Shown in pieces: positions 30,325 to 32,815 of a stretch of DNA of 39,646 nucleotides; position 1 is the stretch's first letter, and each line of letters starts with the position of its first letter. The DNA is from Enterobacteria phage IME10. Position numbers and translations under genes: made by a program. The notes beneath the pieces were generated by a model. The model was given only the letters and a program-made list of their open reading frames with translations. It ran no database searches and was not told the DNA's origin. The stretch is taken from the sequence record JN600960.1, one strand, 5' to 3'.

Positions 30325-30784
30325 TCAACGTAAGGCGTTCCTCGATATGCTGGCGTGGTCAGAGGGAACTGATAACGGACGACAGAAAACCAGAAATCAT
30401 GGTTATGACGTCATTGTTGGCGGAGAGCTATTCACTGATTACTCCGATCACCCTCGCAAACTTGTCACGCTAAACCCAAAACTCAAATCAACAGCCGCCG
30501 GACGTTACCAGCTTCTTTCCCGTTGGTGGGATGCCTATCGTAAGCAGCTTGGCCTGAAAGACTTCTCTCCCAAAAGCCAGGACGCTGTGGCACTGCAACA
30601 GATTAAAGAGCGTGGCGCTTTACCGATGATTGACCGCGGTGATATTCGTCAGGCAATCGACCGTTGCAGCAATATCTGGGCTTCACTTCCGGGGGCTGGT
30701 TATGGCCAGTTCGAGCATAAGGCTGACAGCCTGATTGCAAAATTCAAAGAAGCAGGCGGAACGGTCAGAGAGATTGATGTATGA
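30308..30784 (+). CDS. R: Endolysin R (lytic transglycosylase)
   Basis: 158 aa, lambda R-like ([24 protein letters not shown]). Confidence 0.9.
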
Positions 30785-31218
30785 GCAGAGTCACCGCGAT
30801 TATCTCCGCTCTGGTTATCTGCATCATCGTCTGCCTGTCATGGGCTGTTAATCATTACCGTGATAACGCCATGACCTACAAAGAACAGCGCGACAAAGCC
30901 ACATCCATCATCGCTGACATGCAGAAGCATCAACGTGATGTAGCAGAACTCGACGCAAGATACACAAAGGAGCTTGCTGATGCTAACGCGACTATCGAAA
31001 GCCTCCGTGCTGATGTTTCTGCTGGTCGTAAGCGCCTGCAAGTCGCCGCCACCTGTGCAAAGTCAACGACCGGAGCCAGCGGCATGGGCCATGGAGAAAG
31101 CCCAAGACTTACAGCAGATGCTGAACTCAATTATTACCGTCTCCGAAGTGGAATCGACAGGATAACCGCGCAGGTTAACTACCTGCAGGAGTACATCAGG
31201 ACGCAATGCCTGAAATAA
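30781..31218 (+). CDS. Rz: Spanin inner-membrane subunit Rz
   Basis: N-terminal TM anchor and coiled-coil; the N-terminal third is lambda-like, the C-terminal part diverges. Confidence 0.85.
30974..31165 (+). CDS. Rz1: Spanin outer-membrane lipoprotein Rz1, embedded in Rz in the +1 frame
   Basis: Embedded ORF with lipobox LVVSAC and a Pro-rich mature region. Confidence 0.7.
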
Positions 31219-31250
31219 TTTTTTTGCAAATCACAAAGTCAATTTAATGA

Positions 31251-31272
31251 GCCTCGCGATGCGGGGCTTTTT
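31251..31272 (+). terminator. Intrinsic terminator after the lysis cassette
   Basis: GCCTCGC-GAT-GCGGGGC (one G-U pair) followed by TTTTT. Confidence 0.5.
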
Positions 31273-31296
31273 ATTCCCAACTCTATAGGTAATTTT

Positions 31297-31797
31297 ATGA
31301 CCCAGCATATTGGCGTAAAACTGATTAACGCCTTTCCGATGACGAGACAGGCATATAACGATTTTCGTGGCTGGCAGCTTCCTGCCGGAGAAAACGGCGA
31401 GGACGAAGGCTATCTGGTTGAATATCTGGATGGCGGAAAACCTAACACCGATCGCTTTGATGGCTACGTTAGCTGGAGTCCAAAAGAAGTATTCGAAAAG
31501 GCTTATCGTCAGGTATCAGGGCTAAGTTTCGGCCTTGCCATCGAAGCACTCAAACTGGGTAAGAAAGTTACCCGTGCTGGCTGGAATGGGAAAGGCATGT
31601 ATCTGCAATTAGTTCAGCCACCGCAATCAGCCACTCCGAATGATTGGCGCTATGACGTTACATGTGGTGACGAGTATACATTTGTTCCTGGTGTAAAACT
31701 TCTTCCCTGGATTGGGATGAAGACTGCTGATTGTAAATTTGTTCCGTGGTTGGCGAGTCAGACTGATGTTCTGGCTGAAGACTGGCAAATCATTTAA
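31297..31797 (+). CDS. DUF2829-like protein (Tad2-like fold candidate) with an N-terminal extension
   Basis: C-terminal half [26 protein letters not shown] ... [32 protein letters not shown] resembles the DUF2829 family from memory. Confidence 0.5.
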
Positions 31798-32088
31798 CCA
31801 TGTAGGCATTACAAAGCCCATCTACGGGTGGGCTTGATAATGAAACCGTGATTTACATCCCCACAATCCGGGTATGTAAAAGATAGTTCAGGCGAGAACA
31901 GATTTAACTAAATCTGTGCACCACCAGTTACGGAAGTACAGCGACACAACCCAAGCCAGTAAGTGGGGAAATAACACTGGCAGCCACTGAAAGATGAACC
32001 TCCAGCCTTATGGCAAAAAAGATTCTTTGTGGTGGCGGACTGATGGAAAGACATCCTAATCAAGCAACCACGCCACAGGGGCATAATT

Positions 32089-32469
32089 ATGAACGACCAG
32101 CAAATCGAAAAAGAAATCGTTGAGAAAGGCAAAACCGCTCCGCGAGTTACCCCGCAGCACATCGAAGACGTGATTAAAAGCGAGCATTACTTTACTGCTT
32201 ATGATGGACGAAATGGTGCCATTTCCAGCAACGAATATTGTGGCAGGGAAAAACCAGAAGAAGGCGATCGTGATTTATCACCATTGAAGTTGCTCAATTT
32301 CTGCGTACTGGTGCTGAAGAATGGCTTCACCGTCACCGGAGAGAGTGCCTGTGCAAGTCCGGAAAATTTTGATGCAGAAATTGGTCGGAAGATTGCCAGA
32401 CAGAATGCTGTAAACAAAATCTGGATGCTCGAAGGTTACTTGCTGAAGCAGAAGCTAAGCGAACAGTAG
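32089..32469 (+). CDS. Phage gp49/Sf6 gp66-family protein
   Basis: 126 aa; NGFTVTGESACASPENFDAEIGRKIARQNA resembles the Phage_gp49_66 family from memory. Confidence 0.5.
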   Translation: MNDQQIEKEIVEKGKTAPRVTPQHIEDVIKSEHYFTAYDGRNGAISSNEYCGREKPEEGDRDLSPLKLLNFCVLVLKNGFTVTGESACASPENFDAEIGRKIARQNAVNKIWMLEGYLLKQKLSEQ

Positions 32470-32572
32470 TTATTACAAAAGCCATTCCCTACAGAGTGGC
32501 TTTGATAATGGCTTATACCCTACACGGGATAACTTAACTGATATCCCTTTTAACGGATAAACGGAGCCAACA

Positions 32573-32815
32573 ATGGCAGAGATTACCCCCATGACTGAAG
32601 AACAGAAATTCCAGTTAGAGATTTACAAGCTGGTCATGAACCAGAACGCAGCCGCAGAAGAAGCATTTCAATTCATTGGCACTGACGAGCTGAAGCTTGA
32701 GCTATTCAAAATTCACTTCCAGTCAGGCGGCGCTAATTCAGATATCACGATCCGCACATTCGAAGCGGTGCGTAAATCTAAGGAAGCGTTAGACCTGTTC
32801 ACTACCGGAGCATGA
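32573..32815 (+). CDS. Hypothetical protein (80 aa)
   Basis: ORF with GGAG RBS upstream of the terminase genes. Confidence 0.45.
   Translation: MAEITPMTEEQKFQLEIYKLVMNQNAAAEEAFQFIGTDELKLELFKIHFQSGGANSDITIRTFEAVRKSKEALDLFTTGA

Follow-up and report, generated by a model that had tools for sequence, protein, structure and literature searches.

A widespread, covarying stem-loop behind late genes of Enterobacteria phage IME10 and other lambdoid phages

The late region of Enterobacteria phage IME10, a P22-like (Lederbergvirus-type) phage, carries two similar hairpins, each of them just behind a gene, and this raises the question of what these hairpins are, how widely they occur and why they would be kept at such places. 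We analysed the whole 39,646-nt sequence record (JN600960.1; hereafter, the window), in which the hairpins and their neighbours are arranged as follows.

30001, holin; 30308, endolysin; 30781-31218, Rz
31249..31275, + strand, canonical intrinsic terminator after Rz (GC-rich stem, then TTTTATT), the left border of the cargo slot
31297..31797, + strand, ORF166, directly 5' of copy 1, with a Tad2-like C-terminal domain (Pfam PF11195, E 1.8e-24)
31806..31843, + strand, hairpin copy 1 (repeat finder, RNA folding, covariance-model match of 61 bits, E 6e-15): lower helix 31807-31811 / 31838-31842, internal loop CA 31812-31813 / GA 31836-31837, upper helix 31814-31822 / 31827-31835, tetraloop UACG 31823-31826
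31843..32088, + strand, interval between copy 1 and ORF126, without a convincing gene
32089..32469, + strand, ORF126, directly 5' of copy 2, of the N4 gp49 / Sf6 gene 66 family (Pfam PF13876, E 1.4e-33)
32470..32511, + strand, hairpin copy 2 (repeat finder, RNA folding, covariance-model match of 51 bits): lower helix 32471-32475 / 32506-32510, which can lengthen to 8 bp, internal loop CA 32476-32477 / GA 32504-32505, upper helix 32478-32487 / 32494-32503, terminal loop CCUACA 32488-32493
32511..32572, + strand, conserved leader from copy 2 to ORF80, in which GGGATAA / TATCCC arms recur (downstream cluster D1)
32573..32815, + strand, ORF80 (DUF2560), 3' of copy 2 (Pfam PF10834, E 2.3e-42)
32845, TerS (Pfam PF16677, GP3_package); 33317, TerL; 34817, portal

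Both copies fold into a 5-bp AU-rich lower helix (CAUUA/UAAUG), a 2x2 CA/GA internal loop, a GC-rich upper helix and a terminal loop, the upper helix being 9 bp long in copy 1 (loop UACG) and 10 bp long in copy 2 (loop CCUACA). The first-pass annotation had described two look-alike hairpins with a 7-bp stem at this locus. Both hairpins are indeed present and were recovered as inverted repeats (I13 and I10), but the coordinates had been set one base off (the strings quoted lie at 31809-31842 and 32473-32510) and the structure, with its lower helix, internal loop and 9-10 bp upper helix, is larger than the stem then proposed. The shared flanking sequence that had also been claimed was found independently by the repeat finder, as repeat D3 on the 5' side (31802-31821 / 32466-32485) and repeat D12 on the 3' side (31828-31842 / 32496-32510). 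When the + strand was folded as RNA with its flanks, each copy reached -20.6 kcal/mol (z = -4.85 for copy 1 and -5.36 for copy 2), and 0 of 200 dinucleotide-preserving shuffles matched the folding energy of either copy. Folding of the - strand was weaker (-16.1 and -16.0 kcal/mol for copies 1 and 2), and DNA energy parameters gave the same strand order with smaller gaps. In the model alignment, the copies differ on both sides of three pairs (G-C/A-U, C-G/G-C and C-G/U-A), which bears out the compensatory differences first read from the letters. Canonical terminators were rejected as an identity: the GC-rich hairpin is present, but both copies end in GAUAAUG, with no U-tract, just as had been noted, and a terminator scan lists neither of them.

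With respect to the neighbouring genes, copy 1 begins 10 nt past the stop codon of ORF166 (an out-of-frame TAG lies 2 nt 5' of its ATTACA), and copy 2 begins 2 nt past the stop codon of ORF126, with 62 nt from its end to the ORF80 start. The earlier description of the hairpins as lying upstream of two accessory genes is misleading, since the tie to the preceding stop (10 and 2 nt) is much tighter than that to the next starts, which are 246 and 62 nt away. The interval behind copy 1 begins with a relic of the rha 3' end and then holds a ~125-nt block that is nearly invariant among P22-like phages; compared with the Rfam family Proteo-phage-1, it gives a weak partial match (16.8 bits vs a gathering score of 42). 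A small ORF at 32010-32123 was considered as the true feature of this interval and rejected, its start codon being lost in locus L139 and its frame shifted in L155. In P22, the start codon of orf25 sits in the hairpin loop, and orf25 looks spurious. The leader behind copy 2 stays linked to hairpins of the copy-2 type and the P22 type.

A search for further copies had been suggested by the first-pass annotation. With a covariance model run with filters off, these two hairpins (61 and 51 bits) are the only copies in the window, the next-best match on the + strand scoring 15 bits; outside it, they belong to a large family, and we found the element in 144 phage records. At the homologous site, P22 carries a third stem variant (UUAUUGCA GAGGCCAUU ... 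AGUGGCCUC GAUAAUG). Critically, the element was also found in loci retrieved without using it: it is present in 80 of 80 sampled ORF80-encoding loci, and in all of 80 loci anchored on an unrelated gene, that of a major tail tube protein with Phage_tail_2 and Big_2 domains. In the ORF80-anchored set, a copy ends 62 nt before ORF80 in 80/80 loci (one of them clipped by the contig end), most loci have a second copy 150-760 nt further upstream, and every copy is on the gene strand; beyond these, only two weak third copies pass in the 8-kb loci.

Stem diversity was sampled by scanning viral contigs with a pattern that fixes the flanks only, and bacterial genomes in a similar way, true copies being told from chance matches by folding energy, which is clearly bimodal. 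The viral matches split cleanly into ~44 stable hairpins and ~80 unstructured chance matches, and brought in stems unlike those in IME10 (GGGCGGU/ACUGCCC, GGGUAUC/GRUGCCC and GCGUCUU/AAGGCGC). The bacterial scan, with sources in Enterobacter, Siccibacter, Pseudocitrobacter, Morganella and Xenorhabdus, added GCGCCUC/GGGGCGC, GGGUGCU/AGUGCCC and others. In an alignment of 20 distinct sequences (A1), 100% of the pair cells are standard and 7 of the 14 pairs show changes on both sides. A covariance model (R1) was built from these 20 sequences, and in a larger alignment of 68 distinct sequences (A3), which were aligned to R1 and are hence model-fitted, 98.7% of the pair cells are standard and both-side changes reach 11/14 pairs; controls in which the partner was slid were 34-53% paired. 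Of 500 shuffles, none reached the observed value on four of five measures for A1 and none equalled it on four of five for A3, counts that are not to be read as probabilities because many aligned rows are close relatives. With RNAalifold, the upper helix was recovered together with four lower-helix pairs, and the lower helix covaries too: an A-U pair becomes G-U in P22 and G-C elsewhere, and a C-G pair alternates with U-G and U-A. Between the helices, alignment positions C7 and A8 are invariant in 68/68 sequences and G35 and A36 are kept in 67/68, so that the CA/GA 2x2 internal loop is invariant or nearly so across the 68 sequences, part of which were found by patterns with fixed flanks. Pairing is retained across at least ten different stems, which confirms the conserved structure with true covariation that had been suspected, and conservation of the pairing in related phages, on which that claim had been staked beforehand, was found. 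At gathering thresholds, Rfam 15 has no match in the whole window, and none overlaps the hairpins at E <= 10; likewise, no copy was found in DLP12, Qin and Rac, the cryptic lambdoid prophages of E. coli K-12, the strain for which published cleavage and 3'-end maps exist. Altogether, these results indicate that the IME10 hairpins are copies of a widespread, unannotated and strongly covarying stem-loop in the late operons of P22-like and other lambdoid phages.

The tail-tube loci were especially informative about what is conserved in the element. They belong to another type of siphovirus prophage (the pattern scan found copies with the same flank in Morganella and, diverged, in Xenorhabdus), and in 80/80 loci the element lies 1-2 nt past the stop of the major tail tube gene and ~13 nt before the start of the next gene, which encodes a chaperone. 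At this junction, a drop from high to low expression would be expected. Both flanks, ATTACAAAG and CTTGATAAT, are unaltered in 80/80 loci, whereas the two main groups differ by ~35% in the adjacent codons of the neighbouring genes, and covariation is seen in the upper stem. Because the flanks stay constant as codons and upper stem change around them, the lower helix and the internal loop are evidently under selection for their primary sequence, beyond pairing.

Does the structure act as RNA or as DNA? Among the 952 pair cells of the 68 sequences, 111 are G-U pairs vs 8 A-C mismatches, and the + strand is the more stable one in 62/68 sequences, by a mean difference of 4 kcal/mol. UNCG accounts for 27/52 distinct tetraloops, each of the four bases occurring at N, and GNRA for 0/52; in RNA, a UNCG loop on a closing C-G pair is exceptionally stable. 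Finally, every copy is co-oriented with the neighbouring late genes. Because G-U pairs exceed A-C mismatches, the + strand folds more stably, UNCG loops are frequent and the orientation follows the late genes, we favour a structure that forms in the sense-strand transcript and not in duplex DNA, and it is probable that the functional structure resides in sense RNA. The first-pass annotation had left the choice between RNA and DNA open, and these asymmetries narrow it to RNA. The + strand might conceivably also have a role as single-stranded DNA.

The position of the element is as constrained as its fold. In more than ten unrelated genes, exactly 2 nt separate the stop codon from the ATTACA behind it, and in most contexts the preceding stop lies 2-15 nt upstream, the next start being 13-257 nt downstream. 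By their Pfam domains, the genes found 5' of the element are Tad2-like, Acb2/Tad1-like, gp49/66, Rha, KilA-N, NUMOD4-HNH, T5orf172 and tail tube genes. Tad2 stands for Thoeris anti-defence 2, and Tad2-like and Acb2/Tad1-like proteins are anti-defence sponges. A coding or read-through role was rejected, because the element does not keep one frame with respect to the preceding stop across contexts.

When the flanks were clustered, 26 upstream and 22 downstream contexts were seen in many combinations, and many megablast alignments of other phages begin exactly at 31807, in copy 1. In L021, L087 and L108, the post-Rz terminator directly adjoins the element, ending 3-5 nt before it (similar terminators are found in L265 and L246), so that ORF166 of IME10 fills an insertion slot. 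Similarly, P22 and L124 lack ORF126, and their flanking sequence runs straight into the element. L157 and L160 are hybrids with the junction within the element. The stem type is more closely associated with the first 8-60 nt downstream than with the upstream gene; since it travels with the downstream sequence, exchange would take place mostly at the 5' edge of the element. Judged from these joints, the element marks points where accessory genes, including anti-defence genes, swap between phages.

What could such an element do? We give about even chances to an intercistronic signal for mRNA processing or stability that doubles as a homology anchor for recombination. This reading, of which a processing site was already one option in the first-pass annotation, is suggested by the variable, stable and UNCG-capped upper helix, the constrained lower helix and loop, the placement after stop codons and the occurrence at the tail tube/chaperone junction. 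The stable GC-rich upper helix, free in sequence and usually capped by UNCG, would block 3'-to-5' exonucleases, and the AU-rich lower helix with the CA/GA loop would most likely be recognised by a conserved host factor, for which we consider an endoribonuclease acting as at the RNase III sites of phage T7 the most likely candidate. Cleavage would leave the upstream cistron with a protective hairpin at its end and the downstream RNA with a processed 5' end, and neighbouring genes could thus be expressed differently from a late transcript that antiterminated RNA polymerase does not terminate. What the analysis shows is the fold, its strand, its conservation and placement and the shuffling of its flanks; that it works in RNA, is processed and is read by such a factor is what we infer. 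The same 38-42 nt island would serve as a homology anchor at which the genes 5' of it are exchanged, and mosaic joints would form there because selection keeps the element in many otherwise unrelated phages; together with the conserved post-Rz terminator, it would provide the homology for double crossovers that swap the DNA between them.

T7 RNase III sites of the R1.1 type are likewise intercistronic hairpins of a polycistronic transcript in which an internal loop separates two helices, and cleavage of that type would leave a protective 3' hairpin on the upstream message, as proposed here. The likeness is one of architecture: the element is shorter (~16 bp vs ~22 bp) and its internal loop is a symmetric 2x2 CA/GA loop. 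Its helix comprises 14 pairs and 2 mismatches, and copy 2 alone extends to ~20 bp, to be set beside the ~22 bp that RNase III accommodates (PMC6212723). REP/BIME elements and the malE-malF stabilisers resemble the element in being stable stem-loops just 3' of a cistron within an operon. Stabiliser hairpins at such places are expected to block 3' exonucleases and to favour expression of the gene before them over that of the gene behind them. Unlike REP, however, the element is not dispersed in the host genome (each phage has two copies, and the cryptic prophages of K-12 have none), has a different consensus, and shows sequence conservation in its lower helix and internal loop. A canonical terminator hairpin precedes the element by 3-5 nt in at least five contexts; because the upstream RNA could already be protected by this terminator, acting on the upstream cistron would not be the whole story. 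The closer association of the stem type with the downstream sequence than with the upstream gene likewise speaks against the processing or stability reading.

Could the element instead stop transcription, weakly or conditionally? It would then act as an insulator that halts some unmodified RNA polymerase, for instance during read-through from accessory genes of the prophage, and lets Q-modified polymerase pass. The hairpin is terminator-like, with UNCG loops, its 5' flank ACAAA is complementary to the 3' flank UUGAUAAU, it stands directly behind stop codons, and in L021, L265 and L246 it follows canonical terminators in tandem. Intrinsic terminators share with it the GC-rich stem, the stable tetraloops and the complementary A-rich/U-containing flanks by a stop codon. 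However, its 3' tail is not a U-tract: GAUAAUG is near-invariant in the 68 sequences and offers at most 4 U in 8, against a criterion of at least 5 U in 8. The record of phage L marks the terminators that its authors predicted, and the element is not among them. Termination would also leave unexplained the invariant CA/GA loop, the copy between tail tube and chaperone genes, and the 3' arm of the lower helix, which lies beyond the termination point. It is because this arm lies past any termination point that the element resembles lambda sib/tI, where the upper hairpin is terminator-like as well and the full lower helix forms only in read-through (antiterminated) transcripts; yet sib is a single locus that destabilises the upstream int message, whereas the element is a multi-copy family, without a true U-tract, found after many genes. 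On balance, we regard a weak terminator as doubtful.

A second possibility is that the element works primarily as a DNA-level recombination site, that is, as a boundary or linker promoting module exchange, or as the target of a structure- or site-specific nuclease or recombinase. The extensive reassortment of flanks, the homology breakpoints exactly at the 5' edge, the hybrids within the element (L157 and L160), the constant 2-nt spacing from unrelated stop codons and the mobile endonuclease genes among the cargo (NUMOD4-HNH and T5orf172) all fit such a site. Nevertheless, we find it distinctly unlikely: the tail-tube context is perfectly conserved, with no sign of reassortment, which argues that the element is retained on other grounds; neither a double-stranded site nor a cruciform would be expected to show UNCG loops, a strand asymmetry and G-U pairs outnumbering A-C mismatches 111:8; and ordinary homologous recombination between conserved 38-nt islands suffices for the exchange. 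To our knowledge, no dedicated recombinase is linked to the element. The boundary sequences of lambdoid phages, a concept that reportedly comes from the HK620 and Sf6 genome papers, are similar in that they are short, conserved between unrelated segments, and found at gene boundaries and mosaic joints, but their definition involves no folded, covarying structure; in the stretch of the Sf6 record that we examined, the sole bsq feature (bsq7) lies inside gene 63 and none lies at the hairpins. Integron attC sites also share features with the element, being imperfect inverted repeats 3' of exchangeable genes, conserved outside and variable inside, that fold from one strand. The attC core consensus R''/R' is RYYYAAC / GTTRRRY; the corresponding ends of the element, ATTACAA/TTGATAAT, do not match it, and an attC identity was rejected on these core sequences. 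Moreover, cargo is inserted 5' of a resident hairpin here, whereas attC cargo brings its own site, and we know of no integron integrase in these phages.

The element could also belong to the unit downstream, either as a 5'-terminal stabiliser after upstream cleavage or by coupling translation, the lower helix masking an AU-rich region before the Shine-Dalgarno sequence until a terminating ribosome opens it. The stem type and the first 8-60 nt downstream do move together, a Shine-Dalgarno sequence follows 4-7 nt and a start codon 13-18 nt past the element in several contexts (L120, L106, L097, L265 and the tail set), and the element persists behind canonical terminators. Against this, 246 nt without a convincing gene follow copy 1, and the distance to the next start varies from 13 to 257 nt when that to the preceding stop is tight, so that we consider a 5' element quite unlikely as well.

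A bolder version of the recognition step is that the element serves as the recognition module of a dedicated RNA- or single-strand-binding factor, of host or phage, which would read the CA/GA loop and the AU-rich lower helix and thereby define the exchangeable slots of late operons, including those for anti-defence sponges. Such a cassette-boundary code for lambdoid phages would be analogous in its logic to integron attC or to a phage-wide RNA processing code; we think it improbable.

A promoter element, which the first-pass annotation had entertained, or a double-stranded palindromic operator through which a dimeric regulator would control the accessory genes downstream, is extremely unlikely: the flanks do make up an imperfect palindrome, and GATAAT is similar to a -10 hexamer, but the promoter scan found no sigma-70 -35/-10 pair with 16-18 nt spacing at either copy, the would-be -35 falls in the variable stem and changes freely by compensation, GATAAT is not preceded by TG, and compensatory changes with G-U pairs speak for a folded single strand and not for a protein-DNA site. 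GATAAT was also considered as part of a Fur-like box and rejected, the sequence between the flanks varying by compensatory change with G-U pairs. Hardly any credence can be given to an RNA decoy, such as a CRISPR-repeat mimic or another anti-defence RNA amid anti-defence genes: the adjacent cargo does include genes with Tad2-like and Acb2/Tad1-like domains, and the hairpin followed by GAUAA...AAACCG loosely recalls what we take to be the 3' part of a type I-E repeat, but CRISPR-repeat and all other Rfam families are without a match even at E <= 10, the AAACCG after copy 1 is part of the rha relic, the same element stands between tail genes in other phages, and the stems vary freely, unlike a mimic of one fixed repeat.

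Few temperate phages have been studied as thoroughly as P22, Sf6, L, ES18 and the Stx phages. The element is unannotated in the records of P22, Sf6, L, Huey and Stx2 phage 1717, and no description of it was found in the accessible literature on boundary sequences, the P22-like late operon, the pid locus, BTP1 or RNase III in lambdoid late transcripts. Nor is it mentioned in the Results of a 2022 paper on pid, the locus directly downstream of the hairpin in P22 (PMC8835761). The element is an undescribed motif of a familiar general kind, in phages that have been very well studied. Should it prove to be a signal for processing or stability, it would make it easier to understand why neighbouring genes yield product in very different amounts from one antiterminated late transcript. 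It also offers a concrete example of the old 'linker sequence' idea of phage mosaicism, in which a short functional RNA element would double as a homology anchor beside a hotspot of accessory and anti-defence genes, and its covariance model may be used as a handle to find such cargo slots in prophages.

The sequence directly 3' of the first hairpin copy and the region that follows it, together with two hybrid forms of the element and the terminator that follows Rz, comprise the features below.

Window 31249-31275: canonical intrinsic terminator directly 3' of Rz, within the late operon.
Window 31853-31880: small inverted repeat, TTACATCC..GGTATGTAA.
Window 31900-31917: small inverted repeat, CAGATTTAACTAAATCTG.
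Within window 31843-32088 (also L124 3775-3900 and L002 2005-2128): near-invariant block of ~125 nt in P22-like phages.
L157 1686-1723 and L160 3902-3939, two compared phage or prophage loci: hybrid elements.

The stretch AAACCG...CCAGTTACGGAAGTACAGCG immediately after copy 1 (window 31838-31925) is homologous to the end of P22 rha (ORF201; L002 1955-2035), the shared part being the final ~45 nt of the gene, and is a relic of rha replacement. The insertion that holds both small inverted repeats is present in some phages only; an Rfam match to mir-723 at this place was dismissed as a chance hit. In L157, a left arm of the copy-1 type is joined to a right arm of the copy-2 type, leaving a mismatch, and in L160 a copy-1 stem carries the CAAUGG flank typical of the P22-type group; both look like crossovers within the element.

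The block between the two hairpins (ACGGCAGTACAGCGAAACAACCCAAGCCAGTAAGTGGGGAAATAACACTGGCAGCCACTGAAAGATGAACCTCC...GGACTGATGGAAAGACATC) is nearly unchanged across P22-like phages. It contains a 37-aa ORF (32010-32123) that is annotated in phage Huey, but this frame lacks its start codon in one compared locus (L139) and is frameshifted in another (L155), and the block thus looks non-coding. There is a weak match (16.8 bits, gathering score 42) between its ends and those conserved in Rfam Proteo-phage-1, a family whose two internal hairpins are absent here; the folding z-score of the block is just -0.9.

Among copies of the hairpin elsewhere, that of P22 holds within its loop the start ATG of RefSeq orf25 (L408 1330-1407), annotated as 25 aa and probably not a gene. 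In L107, from a phage different from that of the window, an int-alpA RNA motif (RF02996; 6311-6375, - strand; 50 bits, exceeding the gathering score) starts 9 nt downstream of a hairpin copy. The ORF80 leader (window 32511-32572) carries repeated GGGATAA/TATCCC arms (GGGATAAC..TATCCC..GGATAAAC), which could form alternative hairpins beside the Shine-Dalgarno sequence, and similar palindromes (TTATCCCC-N4-GGGGATAA) occur 3' of the element in P22, L026, L299 and L214.

On the other side of the element, ORF166 (window 31297-31797) starts only 21 nt past the Rz terminator and lacks a promoter-like site of its own; its expression must therefore depend on antiterminated read-through. ORF166 carries a Tad2-like (anti-Thoeris) domain, and an Acb2/Tad1 hairpin domain is present in the gene that fills the equivalent slot of an Enterobacter hormaechei prophage (L280, upstream of 906). 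Genes for anti-defence sponges thus occupy the slot 5' of the element and are apparently co-transcribed with the late operon.
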